From IMG/VR virus record IMGVR_UViG_3300045988_136351: DNA of 20,450 bases. One strand, given 5' to 3'. Positions 3,072-20,450 of the stretch are shown here, in pieces; position 1 is the first letter of the stretch, and each line of letters opens with the position of its first letter. A program made the translations under genes and the position numbers. This stretch comes from a virus. The notes beneath the pieces are model-generated. The model had not been told where the DNA came from. It saw nothing but the letters and a program-made list of their open reading frames with translations, and made no database searches.

Positions 3072-3791
3072 CTAGAATATATTAAAAAATAATCCATATT
3101 CCTGTAATTCCGCGTATAACTCGTTTTCAATGGTAATAACCGCACGTCGTGAACCTTGTAACACTTCCGCCAGTGTTTGGATACCAATATTACCTTTACG
3201 CTTAAAGCTGTATTCTTCATGCCCTGTTGTGTCGTTTGCGCTCTTTGGTTTTGTGATTGTTTTAGCGATGTTATTAACATAGTCGTTTGTCTCAATGTCA
3301 ATACGTCCTTCCGGAGTTACAGACTGTAAAGCAATGCTCGTATCTTCTCCACTTGCCTGTGTGTTTCCTCGACTATCACGCGTATAAGTTTCTGTGTAGT
3401 TTGTGTTTGCGGTTGGGTCGTCCTGGTCTTGAAAAGGGATAGTTTTAAATAACGTATAATATCTATCCATATTGATTTCAAACCAGTGTTGCAATTCAAA
3501 TTTCCAATACGCATAGGTTTCTTGTCCGATTTCGTCAAACCAAAAGTGCTTTAGTATTCCCGTCTCTAAAGCTTTACGTTTTTCAGCATCATCATAAAAC
3601 GCATAGTTAAAATCGAAAATCTTTTTTCTTGCAATCTCTAGCACTTCCATATCGCTTAATTCATATTGAGCGTCAATTAATTCTGTGAATGCTAGGTTGT
3701 GACATACACCGCATATAGTTTCGGTATTTTCCGCAAGCACCGGACTTTGCAAAGTCAATAAATAGTTTGGTAGTTTTAATTTGTTAAACAT
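3072..3791 (-). CDS. Putative lower collar protein (phi29 gp11 position)
   Basis: Lies immediately downstream of the portal gene and is of similar size class. The track start is a GTG at 3800; the ATG at 3791 follows GAAGGTGA. The call rests on synteny only. Confidence 0.6.
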   Translation of the reverse strand: MFNKLKLPNYLLTLQSPVLAENTETICGVCHNLAFTELIDAQYELSDMEVLEIARKKIFDFNYAFYDDAEKRKALETGILKHFWFDEIGQETYAYWKFELQHWFEINMDRYYTLFKTIPFQDQDDPTANTNYTETYTRDSRGNTQASGEDTSIALQSVTPEGRIDIETNDYVNNIAKTITKPKSANDTTGHEEYSFKRKGNIGIQTLAEVLQGSRRAVITIENELYAELQEYGLFFNIF

Positions 3792-3792
3792 A

Positions 3793-4734
3793 TTAATCAC
3801 CTTCTTTTTTAGTTGCTAAATCATCTTTAAAATCTGAAAGTTTTGTATCACCATTTAATTCAATCAATTTTAAAATATCCTCAAAGTCCTCATATGGTGC
3901 AAACTCAACACTCGCGTTTAAATTAAATTTCTTGTTTAATTCTTCAATCGCTTTTTTACGCTCACTAAGCCAAATATTACGAGACGCAATAACCTGTTGA
4001 TTGTTCGCGTTAACCTCATCCGCTACTAATCGCTCTTTTTTGTCCATGTTCGCATTTTCAATTCCTAATAAAGTCATGCACTCACGCAAAATTGCTTGTT
4101 TCATGCCGTGCAATTCATCCGCAATAAAAGGTGCATTTGTTTGTAGTACTTTAACGTCTTCCGTTCTAAATCCTTTTGAAGTAAAGATCGTTTGAACCCC
4201 TTGTAAAATCTTTTTTATAAACACTTTGAATTGTTGTAACATACGTTTATCACCTGTAATGATGTACGGCGTCCATTGCATGGTCAAATTTTGGTCCATT
4301 GTGCGACTCGTTAAAGCTAGTTTTTTAGCGAAAAAGTTTAAGTATGGAAAAATACCAACATATAAAGGACTGTTCTTCATAATAACACACTCTTCATTTG
4401 ATAAATTCTTTTTAACAAGTGGACTTGTTGAAACGGTATGATATTCGGTTGGCATTTGATAGTGGTTTAACTTACCGCCTAATGTGATTTCACTACAGAT
4501 TAAGCCTAACCTTTCATCATCATAAAAGCCAATGTAACCACGTGTTTGTAAAACATATTCTAAATAGAATGTATTAATGGACTCCGGCAAACCTTTATAT
4601 TTAAACATATTTAAACTCAACATTTGTAAATACGTATAATAAATAAAATCAGCCTCTCCATTATTCATCGTAGCAACATCTACCGCGTTCCTACAATAAT
4701 CTGTGAACGAACTTGTATTATTCAATAAATCCAT
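3793..4734 (-). CDS. Portal / upper collar connector protein, phi29 gp10-like
   Basis: YLQMLSLNMFKYKGLPESINTFYLE...GYIGFY and LGIENANMDKKERLVADEV parallel phi29 gp10 (LQSLAYQLFEWENLPPTIN...GYVGFY; LGIKNANLEKKERMVTDEV). The SD-supported ATG is at 4734; the track start is 4743. Confidence 0.9.
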   Translation of the reverse strand: MDLLNNTSSFTDYCRNAVDVATMNNGEADFIYYTYLQMLSLNMFKYKGLPESINTFYLEYVLQTRGYIGFYDDERLGLICSEITLGGKLNHYQMPTEYHTVSTSPLVKKNLSNEECVIMKNSPLYVGIFPYLNFFAKKLALTSRTMDQNLTMQWTPYIITGDKRMLQQFKVFIKKILQGVQTIFTSKGFRTEDVKVLQTNAPFIADELHGMKQAILRECMTLLGIENANMDKKERLVADEVNANNQQVIASRNIWLSERKKAIEELNKKFNLNASVEFAPYEDFEDILKLIELNGDTKLSDFKDDLATKKEGD

Positions 4735-4766
4735 TTTAATCATCTCCTTTTAATTATATATTAAAT

Positions 4767-4796: not shown

Positions 4797-6986
4797 TTAA
4801 TGTACTTTTCTATTTAAGTAGTTACCGAACTTATCAATATCTTCATGTTGATATCTTTCGGTATTTACTTGATCATAATTTCCAACATTTTTATCATGCC
4901 ATAGTGTAATGCCATTATCAAATACACGTTTGATTTTTTCCAAGTCGTTCGGGTCGATATTTGTACCTTTGATATTACATTTTACAGTTTGAATATAATT
5001 CCATTTAGATTTGGTATGTAAATTTGGGTAGTCAATTGTATTAGTGGCATAACCGCGCATGTTCCATATTTGATTTAATTTATTACGGTATTCTTCAGTT
5101 GGCTTATACGCAAACAATATTAATGTGTTTAAATCTAAAGCTGTTTGTCGTAGTAAATCATTTGAGCCAGTAACAATACTATCAGCCGTGGCTTGTGCGT
5201 CATGGATACGTGCGTTGTAACTATCCATAGCGTTTTGAATATTCGTTTGATTTTGGTATCGTGTTGTTAATTGTCTTAATTGGTTTCCGATTTCGGTTGA
5301 TTGAGAATTAGCACTCGCTTGTGCATTTGCGTTTGCAAGTGCGTTTGCGTTTTGTAAGTTGGTTTGTTTTGTGTTAATTTGATTTTGCATGGCTGTTTGT
5401 CCAATGCCTAAACCAGCTCCAACCAAACTACCAACAGCACCACCAATATTACCGGTTAAAGCACTAGCTATACCACCACTTAAACCACCTATAGCGCCTA
5501 TGCTGGCATTTATCATATTTGATTTATTCTGTAGATCGTTCAAATTACTAGCTAAATTTGTATTACGTGCGGTTACACTTAAATTCAAATTATTTTGCAA
5601 GTTTGTTTGTGCACTTAACGCATTACCTGTAGCACTGGCTATAGCTGTATTTGTTTCATTTGAGCGTCTAATATTGGATAATCCAACGTTCATAGAGTTA
5701 CGTGAAGATTGTAGCATTAACGCGGTTGTGTCACTAATAATAGGTAAACTTGATTCATATTGAGATTCAAAAGAGTTATCTAAGTTTAACATAATATTAT
5801 TACCGATAGAATTTTTTTTAACTTTATAATTAATTGGAACTACATTCATTTTAGACGAGTTTGGTGAGCCAACAAAAGCGAATTGCATTTTATGTATATT
5901 TTCCCATAACTCATTTTTAAATAATTTTGTTGTTCCATTGCTATCGCTTAACACAAAATAACTATAAGGATACCATAGCATTTTAGTGTTGTCACTTGCT
6001 CCAATACCTAAATAACTCATAGCGTCTATTAACCGTGATTTTGCGAACTGGTCTGAACTTGAATCATACATACTTGACATAACATATGGCTTATAGGTCA
6101 GTATAGTATAGTCACCTTCCATTTTATTCTCAAAACAGTCTCTTTTTATGATGATTTGGTTATCTTCTACTACTAAACCGGGAATTGAATTCGTTACAAC
6201 AATAGAAACACATTTACCTACTAATACCTCCGATGTTCGAATTGCGTTCATGATCTCGCTTAAACCTGTAATACTTACAACCGTGCCGGATGTTGAACCT
6301 ATTTTCAATGTTTTTATGTCACCGCCTGTAATTCGTGAAAAAGGAAAAATATAATAATTAATTTGTGATGGACTTCCTAGTGTTCCATGTGTATATGTGT
6401 CTTTTCCGTCCATTGTACAAGTCATACCAATAATAGCATAACTTCTATCTTGATTCGGATCTAATCTAATATTGTTTTCACTAATCAAATCCGTACCAAT
6501 TTCCAAATTTTCGGGTTGTGTATTAATACATGGATAATATTGATTATCTTGTGTGTAAAATTGTGGTCTATGCTCATATGCGATGTATGACTCCATGAAA
6601 TTACTTTCAATCTCAAACCGCCAAGTCTGTATTACATCTGTTTCAAAACTAATACTAGTCGCATTGTCGTTTAGATATCCTAAACTTGTGATAAAGCAAT
6701 AAATCCATTTTGCTTTATTACCGGTATTTCCATTTTGATAAATCAAATAATTGTATAAACGTAGATCATCATAAACACCCGGTACGACTACCGTACCATC
6801 TTTTCTTTGATACGTGTAATTTTCAAATACAATATGATCGTAGTTATTAATAAAAAAATTAAATTGTTTTTCGGGGGTATCGAATGCACCCCAAAATGTG
6901 TTATTCATGGCGTCAATTTCTAAACCCTTCAATAAATAAATCTTACTTTGCGGTGTAAATTGACTGTTAACGACTCCTATACTCAT
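4797..6986 (-). CDS. Tail knob protein, phi29 gp9-like, with an expanded low-complexity region and a Gly-rich hydrophobic segment
   Basis: GNKAKWIYCFITSL...FETDVIQTWRFEI and the C-terminal WNYIQTVKC...FDNGITLWHDKNVGNY parallel phi29 gp9. The SD-supported ATG is at 6986; the track start is 6995. Confidence 0.9.
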   Translation of the reverse strand: MSIGVVNSQFTPQSKIYLLKGLEIDAMNNTFWGAFDTPEKQFNFFINNYDHIVFENYTYQRKDGTVVVPGVYDDLRLYNYLIYQNGNTGNKAKWIYCFITSLGYLNDNATSISFETDVIQTWRFEIESNFMESYIAYEHRPQFYTQDNQYYPCINTQPENLEIGTDLISENNIRLDPNQDRSYAIIGMTCTMDGKDTYTHGTLGSPSQINYYIFPFSRITGGDIKTLKIGSTSGTVVSITGLSEIMNAIRTSEVLVGKCVSIVVTNSIPGLVVEDNQIIIKRDCFENKMEGDYTILTYKPYVMSSMYDSSSDQFAKSRLIDAMSYLGIGASDNTKMLWYPYSYFVLSDSNGTTKLFKNELWENIHKMQFAFVGSPNSSKMNVVPINYKVKKNSIGNNIMLNLDNSFESQYESSLPIISDTTALMLQSSRNSMNVGLSNIRRSNETNTAIASATGNALSAQTNLQNNLNLSVTARNTNLASNLNDLQNKSNMINASIGAIGGLSGGIASALTGNIGGAVGSLVGAGLGIGQTAMQNQINTKQTNLQNANALANANAQASANSQSTEIGNQLRQLTTRYQNQTNIQNAMDSYNARIHDAQATADSIVTGSNDLLRQTALDLNTLILFAYKPTEEYRNKLNQIWNMRGYATNTIDYPNLHTKSKWNYIQTVKCNIKGTNIDPNDLEKIKRVFDNGITLWHDKNVGNYDQVNTERYQHEDIDKFGNYLNRKVH

Positions 6987-7015
6987 CTTAATCATCTCCT
7001 TTTATTTTATCTTAT

Positions 7016-7044
7016 AAAAAAATAGTTGAATGTTCAACTATTTT
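7016..7044 (-). terminator. Intrinsic terminator after the gp13-like gene; part of a 32-nt element duplicated at 11075..11106
   Basis: Stem atagttga / tcaactat with loop atgt, flanked by A7/T4 runs. It overlaps the stop codon at 7043-7045. Confidence 0.75.
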
Positions 7045-8251
7045 ATTTATCTTTGATATAGTCATATATCTCACGTGCTTTAGTTCCACGTTGTGGCTGG
7101 TTCGGGTCGGCTGGTCTTTCATAGTTTGCTAAAAACTCAATCGCTAGTGTGTACGGGTCAGCAGTCGATTTTGAAAAACTCGCAAAACTTTCGGGGTAGG
7201 TTGCTGTAGCAATCCATTGTTGATTGTTTTCCATTTCCCATTGGATTCGCTCGCATTCACCTTGACCAAACTTAGACACATCCGGGTAATATCCTTTTTC
7301 TTTTAGCCAGTCAATTATCTTTGTCCAAGGTGTCCATTGTACTAATCCGTACCCTTGAGACTCGACCGGTTGCGCAAATGGTACATCGCCTTGCCATCGG
7401 TTGGGGTTTACTGTAGATTCATAGAATGAGTTTCCTAAGATTCCAGCAACCGCGTTTGCGGTCCACCCTTTCGCTTTAAAAAACTGCCAAAAAGCAACCC
7501 AATTGTTTTTAGACTCATCTTCTGTAAGTGGTCGAGTGTTATTAATATCACCTGGTATAATCCATTTACCAACTGGCGCTGGTCCTGGCCCTGGTTGGAT
7601 TTCTTCTTTTGTTTTATAAAAACCAAAATCAATACCTAAACCATCTAACATAAAATAATGTTTAATATATTTGTAACTTGGTTGTGGTGGTGTTGGTGGT
7701 TGTCCACACTCAAACGTTTTCCATTGTTGACCGTATCCATTTACAATATTCGTATCATTCACATAAAATACATTATTCGGTAATTCTGAACCACTTAACG
7801 CATAACATTGATTACCATACCTACATGTAACACCATAATAAACGAGTCCCGCGTTCTGTGTAAATGTTTGGTCGATATGACAGTGGTCACCGGTAGCCAT
7901 CCCAGCCGTACCCGTATGATAAATTAGATCACCTTGTTTATATTGTGTAGCTGTTGGTGGATTTGGGTCATGAGTAAAACTAACTGTAACATAGCTTAAT
8001 CCGTTTGGTGTCCATACGGGATTATCTGAACTATAGGCGCGTGTATTACCTTGGTTATCACTATAACATAAATGACAACTAAATGGAGCATACACGGGTA
8101 CACGAACCTGCCCACTAATTGCATTGTCGAAGGGATGTCCACAACAGTGTGAATCAGCTGTAGGACTTGACCATTGCGTAATGTTCATTATTTCCATTGG
8201 AAAAAGGCAAACCTCATGCCCATCATGCATTAACTTTTGACCGGCTTTCAT
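7043..8251 (-). CDS. Tail-associated peptidoglycan hydrolase, phi29 gp13-like, with N-terminal M23-type peptidase and C-terminal lysozyme-like domain
   Basis: N-terminal half: FPMEIMNITQ ... GDLIYHTGTAGMATGDHCHID (M23 HxH signature). Pro-rich linkers GQPPTPPQP and QPGPGPAP follow. C-terminal half: GILGNSFYEST...GYGLVQWTP...FLANYERPADPNQPQRG (phage tail lysozyme signature). Confidence 0.88.
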   Translation of the reverse strand: MKAGQKLMHDGHEVCLFPMEIMNITQWSSPTADSHCCGHPFDNAISGQVRVPVYAPFSCHLCYSDNQGNTRAYSSDNPVWTPNGLSYVTVSFTHDPNPPTATQYKQGDLIYHTGTAGMATGDHCHIDQTFTQNAGLVYYGVTCRYGNQCYALSGSELPNNVFYVNDTNIVNGYGQQWKTFECGQPPTPPQPSYKYIKHYFMLDGLGIDFGFYKTKEEIQPGPGPAPVGKWIIPGDINNTRPLTEDESKNNWVAFWQFFKAKGWTANAVAGILGNSFYESTVNPNRWQGDVPFAQPVESQGYGLVQWTPWTKIIDWLKEKGYYPDVSKFGQGECERIQWEMENNQQWIATATYPESFASFSKSTADPYTLAIEFLANYERPADPNQPQRGTKAREIYDYIKDK

Positions 8252-8463
8252 AAATTTAACTCCTCCTCTATTATTGTTAGCTCGTGTAGTTTCTCTTTAC
8301 ATATATTATATCTTTCATAATCCACATCCTTTAGTATGTGCATAGCTTGCATGTAAAACTCGATGTAAAAATAAACGCTTAAACCTTCCGGTAAGCTATA
8401 TGGAATATCTTCCGGTTTTTTCATCTTATATATACTCGATAATTCGCATTCTTTTTTATCCAT
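8248..8463 (-). CDS. Hypothetical protein (71 aa)
   Basis: Strong SD AGGAGGT 7 nt upstream. The stop overlaps the next start (ATGA). Confidence 0.65.
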   Translation of the reverse strand: MDKKECELSSIYKMKKPEDIPYSLPEGLSVYFYIEFYMQAMHILKDVDYERYNICKEKLHELTIIEEELNL

Positions 8464-8492: not shown

Positions 8493-8516
8493 AAAACTAG
8501 CTTATGAGCTAGTTTT
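8493..8516 (-). terminator. Intrinsic terminator overlapping the stop of ORF 8509..8784
   Basis: Stem aaaactagct / agctagtttt with loop tatg. The sequence downstream on the - strand is T-rich. Confidence 0.65.
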
Positions 8517-8784
8517 TTTCTAAAATAATGGAAATACACGCGTCAAGATAGCATTGCCCTTTAATAGGCGTATCTGTTTTAAGCTTAGCGAAATATGGTA
8601 AATATTTCATAGCTAATTGAGTTGTTGCGTTTTGTAATTCATCTTTTGTTGTTGTAACAGTCACAGTATCCAACATTAAATAAACATAATCTATTAATTC
8701 ACTTGTGGCTGGGTCTGTGTTTGGTTGCATTAATTTACACATGTTATTATTTAATAATGATCTCTTAAGTGTATATCCTTCCAA
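8509..8784 (-). CDS. Hypothetical 91-aa ORF, possibly the C-terminal fragment of a broken tailspike gene
   Basis: TTG start with only a weak AAAGG SD. Its frame opens just upstream across a T7 homopolymer (- strand; A7 at 8797-8803 on +), 2 nt after the preceding ORF stops. Confidence 0.4.
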   Translation of the reverse strand: MEGYTLKRSLLNNNMCKLMQPNTDPATSELIDYVYLMLDTVTVTTTKDELQNATTQLAMKYLPYFAKLKTDTPIKGQCYLDACISIILEKN

Positions 8785-8786
8785 AT

Positions 8787-9068
8787 CTAAACCTTTAAAA
8801 AAACATAATCAGAATAATAAGGTGCATTTGGTAAATAGCTAAAATTATAGTTAAAATAATAATCTAATTTTTTAATATTTTTATCTTTGCTTTCTGTCAA
8901 AACATAATAAGTTTGTCCATATTTATTAATTGAAACATTATTTTCAACGGTTTGTGTTGGTTCTGTGGTCCAAGGATAAATATTTTCGCTTGTGTCACTG
9001 TACTTTTGTTGGATTTCAACTAAATTAACTTTACCTGTACCGCTGTTGATAATAGGTTTTGTATCCAT
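8787..9068 (-). CDS. Hypothetical 93-aa ORF, possibly an internal fragment of a broken tailspike gene
   Basis: There is no recognisable SD before the ATG at 9068. It overlaps the end of ORF 9020..10165 in another frame. The beta-rich sequence IINSGTGKVNLVEI resembles a beta-helix rung. Confidence 0.4.
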   Translation of the reverse strand: MDTKPIINSGTGKVNLVEIQQKYSDTSENIYPWTTEPTQTVENNVSINKYGQTYYVLTESKDKNIKKLDYYFNYNFSYLPNAPYYSDYVFLKV

Positions 9069-10165
9069 AATATTGTTTTCAAGCCATAAACTACACTCAT
9101 TTTTGCATTAAAAATTGCATTCACTTTTAATGTTGAATATTTAATATTAACAGTTGGCAAAACCGTGTTATTTGTGCTATACACATCAACTAAATATTTA
9201 TTATTGTTTGAAATATCACAATTATTAAATGTTATTTGTTGTTTCTCCACACTACTTATATTCGGTAGAAGAAAGGTGTTTGCATTATCATAAGTACTAA
9301 TATAACAATTATTAAAATCAAAATTATCAAGCGAACCAAATAATTCAATTGTTCCATTCGGCTCAAATTTTGAGAAAGTGCAATTATTAAATATAAATTT
9401 ACCACCAATATATCCAGCGATAATACTAGTTCTTTGTTTATAGTCATCATCATAATAAAATAATGTTTTATTAATACTATAAACCACACCATTGAATTCA
9501 TTAGTGGCATTAATAAGTTGTGTATTTTGCAATTTACATTCATCTAATAATAAATGCTCTAGCGTGTTAGTTCTAGATGAGATATTATTAAATAAATAAT
9601 TAATATCAACAAAATTACAATGCTTAAATTGAGATGAAAAAAAGTTTTCAGTTAGCGGTAAATTACTTTGTACATCACGCCCAAATGCGATATTACTAAA
9701 CACACAATTTTTTATTTGTTTTGTAAACGTGTTGTTGCCTAATATAATCGTGCTATTAGTACCTATTATATTTGTATCACTAATATTCGTTAGAGTTCCA
9801 TTAATTAAATACATTTTATTACTTAATAAAATATATTTATGGTTTGCGTTTGCACTACCAAAACATTCAGTAAATGCCCTGCTATCATCCGTAACACCAT
9901 CACCTACAGCTCCAAAGTTTTCGGGTAATAAGAAAGGAAAATCATTATTTTTTGTTACTTCCTGCCATAGTGTGCTTTTAAAAGTTTCTAGATTCATGTT
10001 AACTAGATCCTCAACCGTTGTGTTTAATGTTGGTTGTAATTCGGTCCATTTTTCATCAAACTTAGTATTTGTTGTTGTTTGAGCCAGTTCAATAACTTGA
10101 GGTTTTAACTCTTCCCATTTTTCATTGAATGTTGTTGTATGATCGTAGGTTTTAATTTTTCCCAT
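9020..10165 (-). CDS. Tailspike / pre-neck-appendage-like protein, right-handed beta-helix (pectin-lyase fold) part
   Basis: ENFGAVGDGVTDDSRAF is the classic N-terminal motif of pectate-lyase-type beta-helix tailspikes, and N-rich rung-like repeats follow. The ATG at 10165 abuts GAGGA with zero spacing, which makes a poor RBS. The N-terminus continues the FNxxWExLKP repeat of the upstream ORF. Confidence 0.7.
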   Translation of the reverse strand: MGKIKTYDHTTTFNEKWEELKPQVIELAQTTTNTKFDEKWTELQPTLNTTVEDLVNMNLETFKSTLWQEVTKNNDFPFLLPENFGAVGDGVTDDSRAFTECFGSANANHKYILLSNKMYLINGTLTNISDTNIIGTNSTIILGNNTFTKQIKNCVFSNIAFGRDVQSNLPLTENFFSSQFKHCNFVDINYLFNNISSRTNTLEHLLLDECKLQNTQLINATNEFNGVVYSINKTLFYYDDDYKQRTSIIAGYIGGKFIFNNCTFSKFEPNGTIELFGSLDNFDFNNCYISTYDNANTFLLPNISSVEKQQITFNNCDISNNNKYLVDVYSTNNTVLPTVNIKYSTLKVNAIFNAKMSVVYGLKTILWIQNLLSTAVQVKLI

Positions 10166-10375
10166 TCCTCATTAAATTTATTAGTTGTTGTTTCTTCCAC
10201 TAATGTAATAACTTGTGGTTTTAAAATATCCCATTGTTTTTTAAATTCGGCGTCTGTTGTATCCTGTGCCAATTTAATAACAACCGGTTTTAAATCTTCC
10301 CATGCCTTATTGAATGTTTCAATTGTTAAATTTGTAACTAGTTCAATTACTTGAGGTTTTAGAATTGACCATTTA
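10032..10375 (-). repeat. Diverged 69-nt (23-aa) tandem repeat array spanning the 10105..10710 / 9020..10165 junction
   Basis: The Trp-codon anchor (CCAT on +) falls at 10045, 10114, 10161, 10230, 10299 and 10368. Spacings are 69, 47, 69, 69 and 69 nt. Confidence 0.85.
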
Positions 10376-10710
10376 TAGTCGAATTCCTCATCTGTCCATT
10401 CTTTCGTTGCTTGCTCTAATAATGGCACTACTGTATTCCATGCCTCAATTGTTTCATTCATAGCCGTTACGAGTGTATAAACGTACCCTTGTAAATAGTT
10501 TAAACATTGATAGACATTCATACCCGTATTGAATGCACTCACATATTGCTGAGCTAAATTCTTACCACTTAACTTTAAAGGCTCGAACTCCGGTAAAAAG
10601 TTATTGATCTCAAATTCTTCATGTAACTCTGAACCGGAAATACTTTCGCTTTCACTCGTCGATGTTTCACTTGAATTTAAAATATTTTGTTTTATTTTAT
10701 CAAAATCCAT
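10105..10710 (-). CDS. Fibre/tailspike N-terminal anchor plus repeat rod; paralog of 11826..12650 and truncated by a frameshift
   Basis: NFLPEFEPLKLSGKNLAQQYVSAFNTGMNVYQCLNYLQGY closely matches NFLPKFDEVKLSGKNLAQNYVSEFNTGMNIYQCLNYLQGY of the 274-aa protein. 23-aa repeats follow. The SD-supported ATG is at 10710; the track start is a GTG at 10719. Confidence 0.7.
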   Translation of the reverse strand: MDFDKIKQNILNSSETSTSESESISGSELHEEFEINNFLPEFEPLKLSGKNLAQQYVSAFNTGMNVYQCLNYLQGYVYTLVTAMNETIEAWNTVVPLLEQATKEWTDEEFDYKWSILKPQVIELVTNLTIETFNKAWEDLKPVVIKLAQDTTDAEFKKQWDILKPQVITLVEETTTNKFNEEWEKLKPTIIQQHSMKNGKS

Positions 10711-10711
10711 A

Positions 10712-11047
10712 CTATTCACCTTCTTTATATCCGATCAGTTCTTTTAGTTTATCCGGTAAGATATCACTATTGATTTTAGAAATGTTTTCGATAATACTAA
10801 CCACCTCTGTAATAATTGCATATGTACAAATAACCGGCACTAAATCAACTCCAAAAGGTAAAGTTAAATAAGTTTCCGCATAGTTAATAGCAATACCTAA
10901 AGTGTAACAAAAGATAAAGCCAACCTTTTTAAAAAGCCCGTCTCTTAATTTGTTCGATTTGATTTGTTCACCTTCTCGTAAAGCTCCAACGATACCTGTC
11001 ACCAAATCCAAACCATTAAAAACCAATGCTACTAAAATAATTTTCAT
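10712..11047 (-). CDS. Holin, three transmembrane segments (Phage_holin_4-like)
   Basis: MKIILVALVFNGLDLVTGIVGAL..., then GFIFCYTLGIAINY and LVPVICTYAIITEVVSII, with a charged C-terminus. SD AGAGGTGA lies 6 nt before the ATG at 11047; the track start is 11065. Confidence 0.8.
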   Translation of the reverse strand: MKIILVALVFNGLDLVTGIVGALREGEQIKSNKLRDGLFKKVGFIFCYTLGIAINYAETYLTLPFGVDLVPVICTYAIITEVVSIIENISKINSDILPDKLKELIGYKEGE

Positions 11048-11077
11048 TTTAATCACCTCTTTCATTTTCTATAATAT

Positions 11078-11106
11078 AAAAAAATAGTTGAATGTTCAAC
11101 TATTTT
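11078..11106 (-). terminator. Intrinsic terminator after ORF 11107..11826; second copy of the 32-nt element
   Basis: Sequence is identical to 7013..7044 (tataaaaaaatagttgaatgttcaactatttt). Confidence 0.75.
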
Positions 11107-11826
11107 CTAATTTCCTATTTTTCCTTGTCCTAACCATTTTCCATTTTTACGAATTCGGCTCGTACCTTGGTTTTCTTTTCCTACTTTATCATAACTATAT
11201 TTTGCTATATCCTTCCATGAGTTTGATTTTCGTATCTTTAAAAATCCACTGTCTTTATTCAATGATTTTAATACGCCACTTTTACGAATACCCCACGGTC
11301 TAAAGTCGGGAATAACTTGTTGAATACTGTAAATATTCGAGTGTGGAAAAGCTACATTCTCACCTTGTAATTCAATTTTAACGTGTGTAGTATCATTTGA
11401 TAATTGAATAAATTTACTCCACTGGCTCGCTCTTGCCGTACCATCCCATCCTTGCATATAGTTTAAAGGCATTTGTCCGGTATGCGTAAATATCTTTTCT
11501 CTTAATAATTGTGTCCATGTGGCTTGATTGTCTGTTGACTTAGAAACAATAATAAAATAGTTATATGTATCAGTAGTATCACCAACATAATAACCATCCG
11601 CCACATACTGCTGAGCGTCTGTTATAGCATATCCGACTAAATCTAAAATAAATGTTACACCATAATTTCCATTATCCGAGAAATTAATACCTTTACCATA
11701 TCCGGACGCGTGCGCTGTTGCTAATGGTGCTCCAAACGGTCCTGTGTTGTCCGGTGAGCCACCTAAAACAACATTTGCATACGGTCCGGTGTTATCAAAT
11801 GCACCATAAAAATATTGCCATGCCAT
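11107..11826 (-). CDS. Hypothetical structural protein (239 aa), candidate distal receptor-binding partner of the 274-aa fibre
   Basis: Its start overlaps the upstream stop (TAATG), implying translational coupling. It lies in the late structural block. The C-terminus has three IRK(S/N)(G/N) motifs. No family was recognised. Confidence 0.6.
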   Translation of the reverse strand: MAWQYFYGAFDNTGPYANVVLGGSPDNTGPFGAPLATAHASGYGKGINFSDNGNYGVTFILDLVGYAITDAQQYVADGYYVGDTTDTYNYFIIVSKSTDNQATWTQLLREKIFTHTGQMPLNYMQGWDGTARASQWSKFIQLSNDTTHVKIELQGENVAFPHSNIYSIQQVIPDFRPWGIRKSGVLKSLNKDSGFLKIRKSNSWKDIAKYSYDKVGKENQGTSRIRKNGKWLGQGKIGN

Positions 11827-12650
11827 TATACACCACCAGCCAAATCATTTTCACTAGTACCGTTATTTGTACGGATGTATGAACCGCCGTCAACACTTCC
11901 ACCAAAAATATTAATATTACCTGTAGCGATGTTTCTACCGTCTGTCATATGACCGTCAAAAATCGTATCACCCGTTTGTGTCCAAGCTCCACTATTCTTT
12001 AAGTTAGTTAACAAGATAGATAAATCGTCATACATTTTACCGATTTTAGAATCTTGATTATCAATATAATTATTAATAGTATTGTTAACATATTGCGTTA
12101 ACTCCGGTTTTAATTCTTCCCATGACTGGTTGAATTGATTGATTGTTGTTTGTTTCGTCAACTCAATCACTTGAGGTTTTAATTCTTCCCATGACTCATT
12201 GAATTGATTAATTGTTGTTTGTTTCGTTAGTTCAATAACTTGAGGTCTTAATTCTTCCCATTTCTCATTGAATTGATTAATCGTTGTTTGTTTTGTCAAC
12301 TCAATAACTTGTGGTTTTAATTCCGCCCAGTGCTTATCAAATTCACTTTTAGACAGTTCAATACAATATTTAATCATTTCCTCGATGTTTTTATTCCATT
12401 TTTTAACAACATCGTTAACAGCTTTAACCAGCCAACCAATATAACCTTGTAAATAATTTAAACATTGGTAAATATTCATACCCGTGTTAAATTCACTCAC
12501 ATAATTTTGAGCTAAATTTTTACCGCTTAATTTTACCTCGTCAAATTTCGGTAAAAAATTATCAATATCTATTTTGATTTCTTGGTTTTGCTCAAACTGT
12601 TCTTTGATTGTTTTACTTGCTGATTGTTTCTCTTTAGTTTTTCTTAACAT
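11826..12650 (-). CDS. Fibre protein with conserved N-terminal anchor domain and a 23-aa repeat rod
   Basis: Strong SD GAAGGTGGTGA. Repeat units are near-identical (WEELRPQVIELTKQTTINQFNE...). The N-terminal domain is paralogous to that of 10105..10710. It occupies the phi29 head-fibre/appendage position after the capsid gene. Confidence 0.7.
   Translation of the reverse strand: MLRKTKEKQSASKTIKEQFEQNQEIKIDIDNFLPKFDEVKLSGKNLAQNYVSEFNTGMNIYQCLNYLQGYIGWLVKAVNDVVKKWNKNIEEMIKYCIELSKSEFDKHWAELKPQVIELTKQTTINQFNEKWEELRPQVIELTKQTTINQFNESWEELKPQVIELTKQTTINQFNQSWEELKPELTQYVNNTINNYIDNQDSKIGKMYDDLSILLTNLKNSGAWTQTGDTIFDGHMTDGRNIATGNINIFGGSVDGGSYIRTNNGTSENDLAGGV
12106..12335 (-). repeat. Near-identical 69-nt tandem repeats (about 3.3 copies) inside the fibre gene
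   Basis: The anchor CCCAT/CCCAG on + falls at 12119, 12188, 12257 and 12326, exactly 69 nt apart. Units are mostly identical at nucleotide level. Confidence 0.9.
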
Positions 12651-12701
12651 GATCTCACCACCTTCAAATACATACTAATACAAAATAAATAAAAATAAAA
12701 G

Positions 12702-12729
12702 AAAAAGAGTTAAATTAATAACTCTTTTT
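12702..12729 (-). terminator. Intrinsic terminator downstream of the major capsid gene
   Basis: 11-bp stem aaaaagagtta / taactcttttt with a 6-nt loop, followed on the - strand by a T-rich tract. A GC-richer hairpin at 12766..12790 precedes it. Confidence 0.75.
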
Positions 12730-12805
12730 CCTAAGTTGCAATTTACCTAAATAATAGAAAGGAGGGGTGCCATGTTCTACTCATGACACCGATATTATAA
12801 CATAA

Positions 12806-14155
12806 CTATACGTTATATACAACCTTAATATCACAAGTTACCTCGGAAACTGTATCTTTAATTGTTACAGTTGCTAAACCTTCCGCGTCAATAGCCTCTA
12901 AACATTCAATTTTAACGTGTTTCAAATCGCTTTCGATTGTAGCTTTAACTTTATCATCAACACTAGATGTAGCCGTCAAACTATACTTAGCATTTAAACC
13001 ACTTGTCTGAACTGTAAATGGTACGGTAATAGTCGCACCTTTACGAACTTCAACAACTTGTGGGTTTGAGTAAATAGCTGTAACTTTTTCCTCAACATTT
13101 CCGGATACAAACGCAATCGCATTTGCAAAACGGCTTGTTGCGATACCTTCCCAGTGGTGCAAGAAGTAATTCCAATATAATCCTTTAGCATTATACGCAA
13201 CACCTACGCTATATTTTTGGTCAAATACTCTATAAATTTCTGAATCACACACAATTGCCTCAATAGTACCTTGTGCCGTGCTTGGTAAAGTCGGTAGCAC
13301 TAATACATGAGTTTTGAATTGTGCAAACTCTAATTGGAATGTCTGAGCTAACCAATCAATATTTAAGTAGCTATTTGTTTTACCGTTTAGGATGACATAA
13401 ATATCATCGTATTCGTTTTGCTTTGTGACAGCCATAGCGTTATATTCGTTTGTTGGTTCTGTTAAATAAGATACGTATTCTGTAATTTTACGCGCTAACT
13501 CTTTCGCTGTATCCGTATCTGTTACGGCGTTCGTATTTACGATCTTCATATGTCCATTTTCATAATGAGTGACTAAAGCGGATTTCATATAATTATAATC
13601 ATCCTTATTATCACCATTATACATAGAATCAACAATTCGAGCAATCAAACTGTTTACACCATCCCAAGTTACAAAATACTTTCTTAAATCATCATCTGTA
13701 ATTGTAGCTGGATAGTATGACTTTCTGTTTACTACATAGAAAGCTGTTTTAATGTCTGGTAAACTTCTCTTAAAAAGAGTGTTTTCCGCGTCCGCCTGAT
13801 CGTATGCGTGCTCTTTAGCGCACTCAACGAAATACTCTTCCATAGTATAACCTAAAGGCATGTTCTCCATTTTAAATGGCGCTAGTTTGTTCGTTAAAAT
13901 ATTACGGTGTGCAATCACTTTACCAATACGTGTAGCTAAATTCATGAACTCAACACCTAAAGTATCCGGATATTCTAATAAACCGTTCATGAACTCTAAA
14001 GAGCTTGTTTCGTTTGGGTCACTAATTGTACTTCTAAAATTGCTAGAACTCATTGCGTACATAGCACTGGCGACTTCTTGACCGGTTGGTTCATGGTCCA
14101 TACCTAAGTCATTTTGTAACGTTTTAGTTACGTCTTTTCCTGTTGTTTTTGACAT
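12806..14155 (-). CDS. Major capsid protein, phi29 gp8-like, with a C-terminal Ig-like (BIG2-type) domain
   Basis: GLYWNYFLHHWEGIATSRFANAIAFVSGNV parallels phi29 gp8 [30 protein letters not shown]. At 449 aa it is nearly the same length. The beta-rich C-terminal 90 aa are typical of BIG2 domains. Confidence 0.93.
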   Translation of the reverse strand: MSKTTGKDVTKTLQNDLGMDHEPTGQEVASAMYAMSSSNFRSTISDPNETSSLEFMNGLLEYPDTLGVEFMNLATRIGKVIAHRNILTNKLAPFKMENMPLGYTMEEYFVECAKEHAYDQADAENTLFKRSLPDIKTAFYVVNRKSYYPATITDDDLRKYFVTWDGVNSLIARIVDSMYNGDNKDDYNYMKSALVTHYENGHMKIVNTNAVTDTDTAKELARKITEYVSYLTEPTNEYNAMAVTKQNEYDDIYVILNGKTNSYLNIDWLAQTFQLEFAQFKTHVLVLPTLPSTAQGTIEAIVCDSEIYRVFDQKYSVGVAYNAKGLYWNYFLHHWEGIATSRFANAIAFVSGNVEEKVTAIYSNPQVVEVRKGATITVPFTVQTSGLNAKYSLTATSSVDDKVKATIESDLKHVKIECLEAIDAEGLATVTIKDTVSEVTCDIKVVYNV

Positions 14156-19792: not shown

Positions 19793-20065
19793 TTATAAGA
19801 AAATAAATTCACCACTAGCATACTTAAGTAATTCATCTGATAGATCAGCAAACTGTAAAACTAAATAATCAAAATCACTAACTGTAATATCTTCGTCTTT
19901 TAAAGTGTTAAGTATAATAATGTGCATTGAATTAATATAATTAGCAATTAACACATTTTTAAATTCATCTTCATCCACAACCTTAATGGACTCTATAGCA
20001 TTATTGTAAATATTTAATAACACTCCTTCATACACTTCCCTTAATGTCATTTCAACTTTAGTCAT
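19793..20065 (-). CDS. Hypothetical first early protein (90 aa), strongly acidic
   Basis: The ATG at 20065 follows the ITR-encoded SD. The track N-terminal extension MCYTIGEKKEGYN is the translated 5'UTR. I count 17 D/E against 6 K/R. Confidence 0.7.
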   Translation of the reverse strand: MTKVEMTLREVYEGVLLNIYNNAIESIKVVDEDEFKNVLIANYINSMHIIILNTLKDEDITVSDFDYLVLQFADLSDELLKYASGEFIFL

Positions 20066-20092
20066 GTTGTAGCCCTCCTTCTTTTCACCTAT

Positions 20093-20120
20093 AGTATAGC
20101 ACACCTATTCTAGAATACAA
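20093..20120 (-). promoter_or_regulatory. Identical early promoter inside the right ITR, reading inward
   Basis: Mirror image of 331..358. It precedes the long - strand early operon. Confidence 0.6.
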
Positions 20121-20260
20121 GTGTTTTTGTAATTTCACATAATCCACAACCGAGCCGTGTGTGTCATTGTTTCACGTGGAACATTCTTGTGTAGTGGCGT
20201 GTAATGTAGTGTGGTGTGTGGTGTGATGTGTAATAATGTGCTATGTAGTATGGTGTGGTG

Positions 20261-20340
20261 AGGTGAGTCGAACAGAGTGAGACTACACCGAGCGGAGCGA
20301 GTCCAAGGTGAGCGGAGCGAACCAACACCGAGCGGAGCGA
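20261..20340 (-). repeat. Mirror copy of the 20-bp phased repeat array in the right ITR
   Basis: Reverse complement of 111..190 (gagcggagcga cores at 20-bp spacing). Confidence 0.9.
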
Positions 20341-20450
20341 GGCGGTGTTGTATTGTGTTAGTTAGTGTTAACTAATATTATCCTATGTGTGTTCGTGTTC
20401 TGTGAACATGTGTGCGCCAATGGGGAACATGGTTATGCTGACACTACACA

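Follow-up and report, generated by a model that had tools for sequence, protein, structure and literature searches.

How many receptor-binding appendages does a small podophage carry when its genome encodes the same virion-docking domain twice? The question is raised by a viral genome of 20,450 nt (IMG/VR record IMGVR_UViG_3300045988_136351), the whole of which is referred to here as the window. Its minus strand encodes a 274-amino acid (aa) protein (gene A, 11826–12650), a 239-aa protein whose gene overlaps that of A (gene B, 11107–11826), a holin (10712–11065), and a region named module 2 (8509–10710), which opens with a 201-aa open reading frame (ORF) that resembles A. A reading made from the sequence alone, termed here the sequence-only reading, had interpreted A and the 201-aa ORF as parts of two alternative appendages with one anchor and different distal ends, providing dual host-range determinants. 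We consider it likely that the genome does specify two tail appendages, both built on one arm of the phi29 gp12 type, but that the ancestral one, module 2, is broken, and that A and B constitute an accessory cassette, of which the tip of A and B form a mobile pair.

A and the 201-aa ORF are true paralogues. In BLASTP, their alignment extends over 161 aa with 53% identity (E 5e-61), a stretch that spans the N-terminal docking segment and a rod of 23-aa repeats, which bears out the common N-terminal region and rod of the sequence-only reading. At the DNA level, the rod of A is a tandem array of a 69-nt unit (12106–12323, minus strand), for which Tandem Repeats Finder returned a period of 69, 3.2 copies and 88% matches; among the relatives of A, protein length rises in steps of 23 aa (228, 251, 274 and 297 aa). 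The similarity between A and module 2 is distributed unevenly: the motif KLSGKNLAQ.YVS.FNTGMN.YQCLNYLQGY is 90% identical (27/30), the 33 residues that follow it only 24% identical, and the repeats 54% identical. This motif is the docking loop, represented in A by residues 40–69, KLSGKNLAQNYVSEFNTGMNIYQCLNYLQGY (12444–12533, minus strand); it shows the highest conservation within the shared anchor, is nearly invariant across the proteins of the clade, and aligns with the N-terminal arm of phi29 gp12 and the start of the arm stem.

Profile comparison identifies the shared N-domain as a homologue of the N-terminus of the phi29 gp12 appendage. When a profile built from clade anchors only (A5) was aligned using hhalign with a profile of gp12-family N-termini (A8, comprising phi29, Karezi, DLc1, SRT01hs, GA-1, WhyPhy, Athos, and BeachBum), the match reached 95.8% probability with an E value of 8.3e-9, and its 70 columns span gp12 residues 2–77. 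This result supports the virion-docking role that had been proposed for this domain; against phi29 gp12 alone, the clade profile gave 56% probability and E 1e-4. A full-length relative of module 2, a 718-aa protein of 97% identity (P0001), aligned with gp12 in two collinear BLASTP segments, namely the anchor (E 1e-3) and the start of the β-helix with its GDGVTDD motif (E 6e-6). In the phi29 virion, gp12 residues 1–32 form extended arms that bind the connector and the lower collar and interlock with neighbouring appendages, and residues 32–100 form a three-helix coiled-coil arm (PMC6542822). The same layout of N-terminal loop and coiled coil is seen in the receptor-binding protein of Andhra, and conservation among otherwise unrelated picovirus receptor-binding proteins is limited to the N-terminal part (PMC9710869). 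According to the profile comparison, both A and module 2 possess a gp12-type arm and a coiled-coil stem. Since their N-domain is homologous to the segment of gp12 that binds the connector and lower collar, the two are interpreted as tail appendages and not as head fibres. A relationship with the anchor of P68 gp17 was also considered; a mixed profile matched it with E 0.056, and this homology is not claimed because the match vanished once a C1-like sequence was taken out.

The anchor is always N-terminal; clustering at 50% identity places the proteins that bear it in 96 clusters, with lengths from 95 to 1037 aa. Its distal partners range from pectate lyase, GDSL lipase, and Gp10_C to domains without a Pfam match. 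Some of its occurrences are short. At one locus (L044, 7387–8412), a 187-aa protein of anchor plus coiled coil ends in ...ASEGGI, and its gene shows translational coupling to that of an unrelated 146-aa protein; relatives of this type have a single appendage, composed of two genes as a stalk plus a tip on the clade anchor, with an unrelated tip. Anchor ORFs of approximately 187 aa are also present in many other loci (L042, L048, L050, and others). In the Enterococcus phage Athos (L098, 100–495), ATHO_15, annotated as hypothetical, has a gp12-type anchor at its start and lies directly after the lower collar gene; as it is only 184 aa long, cultured Salasmaviridae may also have short anchor-stalk proteins that require a separate tip. 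Pfam matches of the rod to IKBKB_SDD, Bacillus_HBL, WXG100, and DUF5315, as well as its PDB matches to engineered OspA repeats, were dismissed as chance matches of repetitive or helical sequence.

Module 2 is one broken gene for a protein of ~720 aa, of which the 201-aa ORF is the first fragment rather than a gene of its own, because its relatives encode a single protein across all the pieces that are separate in the window. The gene, a gp12-like tailspike gene of ~2.2 kb with anchor, rod, pectate-lyase-like β-helix and C-terminal domain, is divided by three successive −1 frame changes into four pieces on the minus strand (10105–10710, the 201-aa ORF; 9020–10165; 8787–9068; 8509–8784). Approximately 120 listed relatives are single proteins of 718–982 aa, almost all of which cover 100% of the four concatenated pieces; tblastn finds four frames in the window as opposed to one frame in ~20 relatives, and P0001 reads uninterrupted through all three sites. 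Approximately 1.6 kb of the gene lies outside the region delimited by the sequence-only reading. The view that the rod of module 2 runs into a β-helix is correct for the one-gene relatives; in the window itself, the 201-aa ORF ends at a TAA codon (10105–10107) and the β-helix lies in the −1 frame (9020–10165).

The β-helix domain (9215–9919, minus strand) is recognized by Pfam PF12708 with E 5e-7 and 30.2 bits against a cut-off of 27, and its motif GAVGDGVTDDSRAF aligns with GAKGDGVTDDIRAF of phi29 gp12 in BLASTP (E 6e-6). Such a gp12-type β-helix following the stem is found in module 2 and not in A, which has a fibre tip in this position. The C-terminal 190 aa of module 2 gave no Pfam match. 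In several natural variants (P0173, P0175, P0189, P0202, L009, and L021), the β-helix is missing and the anchor and rod continue in frame into the C-terminal ~190 aa; therefore, the C-terminal region (window 8509–9068) behaves as an independent module.

The three frame-change sites, all on the minus strand, are of two kinds. Site 1 (10127–10140, breakpoint 10134/10135) is an out-of-frame deletion of ~0.24 kb in the repeat array relative to full-length relatives; alignment to locus L022 and comparison with P0001 and P0002 revealed that it joins non-equivalent repeat positions that share only ~4–6 nt of microhomology. Site 2 (9100–9104) is a run of five A where the relatives read NAKNECSLWLENN and a sixth A is needed. 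Site 3 (8797–8803) is a run of seven T on the minus strand, at which P0001 reads DYVFFKGLDLEGY and an eighth T is needed. Module 2 holds 14 of the 139 homopolymer runs of at least 5 bases, yet both single-base indels are located there.

Gene A encodes a fibre-type tail appendage, consisting of the gp12-type anchor, a coiled-coil stem, the 23-aa repeat rod and a conserved C-terminal tip. It is intact in relatives, at 274 aa and 97–99% identity, and is 30% identical over 81% of its length to ORF16 of Cp-7, annotated as 'Appendage' (tblastn). The tip (residues 206–274, SGAW...GNINIFGG...ENDLAGGV; 11829–12035, minus strand), proposed as the joint for B, is 54% identical to the C-terminus of Cp-1 orf15 (tblastn), recurs in 'tail fiber' proteins of C1-like phages and in a protein of EF62phi, and shares 84% identity with the final part of the 200-aa fibre P0192. 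A near-identical copy of the latter fibre, with a Cys-rich N-terminus, is encoded in a prophage of a Holdemanella metagenome-assembled genome (MAG) (L090, NZ_CAKVMR010000001.1, a 156-kb contig, 5399–6717), where the gene order is tape measure, Dit-like protein, a 281-aa gene, the 200-aa fibre, a B homologue and a Tal-like protein; the ORF directly downstream of the fibre is 61% identical to B. A is accordingly a chimera, in which the anchor and rod of the clade have been joined to a siphophage-type fibre tip that was acquired with its partner B. Such a protein agrees with the earlier idea of domain shuffling at the repeat rod, or just after it. The same link suggests a host among Holdemanella-like or related Erysipelotrichaceae.

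The TAATG overlap by which B had been considered translationally coupled to A is present. B combines an N-terminal β-sandwich with a conserved C-terminal segment of ~65 aa that carries IRKxGxW hairpins. Its AlphaFold2 (AF2) model, a β-sandwich with a predicted local distance difference test (pLDDT) score of 82, matches the fold of a viral 'Glucan-binding protein C' (E 9.5e-15, template modelling score 0.62) and of a SOCP homologue. A B-type gene is always found directly downstream of an A-type tip, i.e., in Cp-7, Cp-1, SOCP, pBovineS21, EF62phi and the Holdemanella prophage, and the neighbours in Cp-1, Cp-7, C1-like and EF62phi phages resemble B in the C-terminal ~65 aa, which contain three IRKxGxW hairpins. 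The similarity to ORF17 of Cp-7 (39% over 64 aa, E 2e-15) involves the C-terminus only, and that to the pBovineS21 neighbour (34%, E 1e-10) is likewise limited to conservation at the C-terminus, while the EF62phi neighbour is 36% identical over the full length. We infer that B is a distal adhesin plugged onto the A trimer.

The holin (minus strand; Pfam Phage_holin_4_1, E 1e-14) is indeed located between the two paralogues, although the suggestion that this is atypical synteny does not survive comparison with the clade. Its position is normal, because 83 of 85 related loci share the order capsid – holin – appendage, with A and B inserted between capsid and holin in 27 of them. The order capsid – holin – anchor gene is found in 55 loci and capsid – A – B – holin – anchor gene in 26, and one further locus (L033) has capsid – A – B – holin with remnants only of module 2. 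The seeming oddity arises because the A+B cassette sits upstream of the holin. Module 2 would hence be the ancestral, positionally conserved appendage, and A+B an accessory cassette upstream of the holin. Lysis genes also occur among the structural genes of P68.

Several points weigh against the proposed model. A search of PDB sequences with the family-only anchor profile matched no solved anchor, and the N-terminus of P68 gp17 gave no match to this profile either; modelling of A as a monomer by AF2 reached a pLDDT of 39, unusable for a fold search, such that a structure of the anchor was not obtained. B has no match among solved structures (sequence profile; best Foldseek E 0.08) and could be an assembly chaperone and not a virion protein, and the assignment of a Holdemanella host depends on a single metagenome-assembled contig. 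A further point concerns the frame changes: two of the three are one-base shortenings, of A6 and T8, and all three run in the same direction, which is also the signature of homopolymer sequencing errors. Pattern scans of IMG/VR and JGI data found no independent contig with the window alleles at sites 1 and 2, and likewise did not find the P0001 contig, so that the pseudogene status of module 2 hangs on one assembly. Were the frame changes artefacts of sequencing or assembly, the real phage would encode an intact ~720-aa tailspike, carry both appendages and possess a working dual-receptor virion. Such an explanation would suit the P0001 contig of 20405 nt, which is in frame at all three sites and from which the length of the window follows as 20405 + 47 − 1 − 1 nt, and the retention of an intact module 2 in ~20 of the 28 dual loci. 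However, every lesion falls in a single gene that contains a small share of the homopolymer runs, whereas the remaining large genes of the window are all intact; the junction of site 1, with its scant microhomology, is difficult to ascribe to repeat collapse by an assembler, which we judge unlikely; and module 2 is also out of frame or a remnant in three independent contigs (L027, L032, and L033), making four of the 28 dual loci together with the window. Two other dual loci (L009 and L021) have in-frame deletions of the β-helix. We therefore regard the artefact explanation as unlikely, though it deserves to be taken seriously, and the frame changes as probably real lesions. Real decay after the gain of A and B is favoured because the lesions sit in module 2 while the other large genes are intact. 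Programmed −1 frameshifting was also examined, as each site permits a slip of tRNA-Lys or tRNA-Phe that restores the protein sequence of the relatives; it was rejected as the principal explanation because three low-efficiency slips in succession would yield almost no full-length product and because the relatives use one frame. As the three frame changes break module 2, working dual host-range determinants are doubtful in the window genome.

The role of B is the next point at which an alternative must be weighed. It may be a Tfa-like chaperone that trimerizes the tip of A during fibre assembly, in which case the receptor surface would be the Gly-rich C-terminus of A. Translational coupling to A and a constant position directly after A-type tips are usual for fibre chaperones, and the lack of a match among solved structures points in the same direction. 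Conservation in B is nevertheless confined to the C-terminal ~65 aa, and the ~170-aa β-sandwich differs between phages of different hosts, whereas the tip of A is highly conserved across hosts; specificity is more likely to reside in B because its β-sandwich varies while the tip does not. In addition, the fold of the B model resembles that of a viral protein whose name denotes a glucan-binding adhesin, and the B homologue of Cp-7 is annotated 'Appendage'. A chaperone role is accordingly considered improbable, and the adhesin remains the preferred assignment. Far less credible is a third possibility, in which A and B form a head fibre or capsid decoration and are the counterpart of phi29 gp8.5. 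A does lie directly after the major capsid gene, as gp8.5 does in phi29, and its helical repeat rod superficially resembles the helix-turn-helix fibre of gp8.5 (PMC11476376). The base by which the head fibre sits on the capsid is made by the N-terminal part of gp8.5 (PMC6542822), which is similar to minor capsid proteins (PMC11476376). When A was searched using phmmer against all PDB chains (E ≤ 10), no head fibre entry and no base domain of the gp8.5 type (~110 aa, N-terminal) was matched; gp12 was the sole phi29 protein found, and the N-domain of A matches gp12 in the profile comparison. Thus, gp8.5 and A are alike in gene position directly after the capsid gene and in a repetitive helical shaft, but they differ in that no sequence similarity was found and A has a gp12-type tail anchor. 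This anchor, homologous to the gp12 N-terminal arm, is also that of the sole appendage gene in 55 single-appendage relatives. Moreover, the pair of A-type and B-type genes in C1-like phages comes immediately behind the lower collar gene and bears a tail fibre annotation. A and B are therefore retained as parts of a tail appendage.

In the mechanism that we propose, A and module 2 would attach to the connector and lower-collar region, presumably at the same collar sites, by the same gp12-type N-terminal arm. The β-helix of module 2 is probably a depolymerase of cell-wall glycopolymers, by analogy with phi29 gp12, while B would dock on the tip of A through its conserved C-terminal hairpins and present its variable β-sandwich as an adhesin. 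The tip and B together represent a mobile module common to Holdemanella-like Firmicutes siphophage prophages and to Cp-1, C1-like, and EF62phi phages. Since the ancestral tailspike has three independent inactivating lesions, the window phage most likely adsorbs by A+B alone, and it may also carry a stub consisting of the 201-aa anchor plus rod. In phi29, twelve homotrimers of gp12 surround the virion collar, and in Andhra the trimers are staggered as proximal and distal ones. A more detailed scenario, which we put forward only tentatively and hold to be somewhat doubtful as a whole, is that a twelve-fold ring is filled by two types of trimer on one N-terminal arm, either mixed or alternating as in Andhra, that the diverged coiled coil segregates the homotrimers, and that gain of the siphophage cassette relaxed selection on the tailspike, which then decayed. 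The presence of a near-identical docking loop beside a strongly diverged first coiled-coil segment could keep the homotrimers apart in this manner.

Receptor-binding proteins determine which hosts a phage can infect and are what phage engineering chiefly targets. If the proposed history is correct, the window has caught the turnover of a receptor-binding protein mid-process. The clade, with genomes of 15–20 kb and hundreds of metagenomic relatives, offers a compact example in which one gp12-type anchor takes many distal modules, a second appendage is added in parallel and not by branching, and the ancestral tailspike is afterwards lost in some lineages. The joint between the A tip and B is found again in Salasmaviridae, C1-like phages, EF62phi and siphophage prophages; should it be a heteromeric fibre–adhesin connector, it would be a portable plug for the exchange of adhesins between phages of Gram-positive bacteria. 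Furthermore, the Holdemanella link suggests a host for an abundant group of uncultured gut podophages.

Perfect inverted terminal repeats of 395 bp (1–395 and 20056–20450) extend at both ends into the first codons of the terminal ORFs, which marks the window as a complete linear genome; at 20.45 kb, it belongs to a phi29-like podophage. Such long inverted terminal repeats are shared with Cp-1, unlike phi29, in which the repeat is 6 bp (PMC4974454). Pfam identified the capsid protein (Phi29_MCP, 12806–14155), the gp10 connector (3793–4743), the gp9 tail knob (4797–6995), the tail lysozyme (7043–8251), and, on the minus strand, the Gp16 packaging ATPase and a B-family DNA polymerase. The lower collar gene lies at 3072–3800. 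No cultured phage has a capsid protein that exceeds ~33% identity to that of the window, and a megablast search of the region against 50,697 phage records returned no DNA-level match; the clade includes hundreds of metagenomic contigs of 15–20 kb. Among the contigs binned under a 'Clostridia bacterium' MAG is a podophage contig of the same kind as the window (L089). A conserved ORF of 71 aa (8248–8463) separates module 2 from the tail lysozyme gene and measures 69–71 aa in the clade members inspected. A consensus scan alone indicated a pair of terminator-like hairpins that separate the capsid gene from A and immediately follow the former (12699–12790, minus strand), and another directly at the end of module 2 (8493–8516, minus strand), by which A, B, the holin and module 2 would be flanked as one block.

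Conserved N-terminal anchors with swappable distal domains, as well as phages with multiple receptor-binding proteins, are well known, and the system described here is best placed by comparison with related systems. The N-terminal extended arm and three-helix coiled-coil stem, which fix the trimer to the connector and lower collar in phi29 gp12 and Andhra gp15, are shared with both module 2 and A, and the pectate-lyase-like β-helix with the GDGVTDD motif after the stem is a further likeness of gp12 to module 2. Module 2 differs from gp12 in having a 23-aa repeat rod of variable length between the stem and the β-helix and in the position of its gene after the holin instead of after the lower collar gene. 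Residues 692–854 of gp12 are a C-terminal auto-chaperone that is cleaved after assembly; in BLASTP, P0001 had no significant C-terminal match to gp12, and module 2 is in this respect also dissimilar. Unlike phi29, the window encodes a second paralogue with the same anchor in one genome.

The closest parallel to A and B is the two-gene fibre of the Cp-1 orf15/orf16 type, whose tip signature, SGAW...GNINxFGG...ENDLAGG, is found in A and whose C-terminal segment of the adjacent gene, RPWxIRKxG...IRKxGxW, is found in B. Similar pairs are Cp-7 ORF16/ORF17, those of C1-like phages, and that of the EF62phi 'bdr repeat protein'; in each, a tip of ~70 aa is followed by an adjacent, often overlapping gene with the ~65-aa hairpin motif. 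The databases and papers searched assign no structure or function to the tip/B pair. Each lineage has its own N-terminal anchor and stalk: Cp-7 has a coiled coil, C1-like phages have an N-terminus like that of P68, and the fibre of the Holdemanella prophage begins with a Cys-rich one.

Branched dual receptor-binding proteins have been described for podophages of Klebsiella, namely KP32, K11, and KP34 (PMC6872550, PMC13352976). As in the window, phages of the KP32 type are small podophages with two receptor-binding proteins that differ in their distal domains, an arrangement thought to widen or switch host range. In the KP32 type, the tail anchor belongs to the first protein alone, and a branching domain of that protein serves as the docking site of the second, whereas A and module 2 each carry an anchor, with docking loops that are 90% identical. 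Because each has its own copy of the same anchor, attachment would be parallel and not branched. Taken together, this system appears to differ from those known in its parallel gp12-type anchors, in a two-gene fibre–adhesin module that extends across phage families, and in the repeated decay of a depolymerase tailspike.

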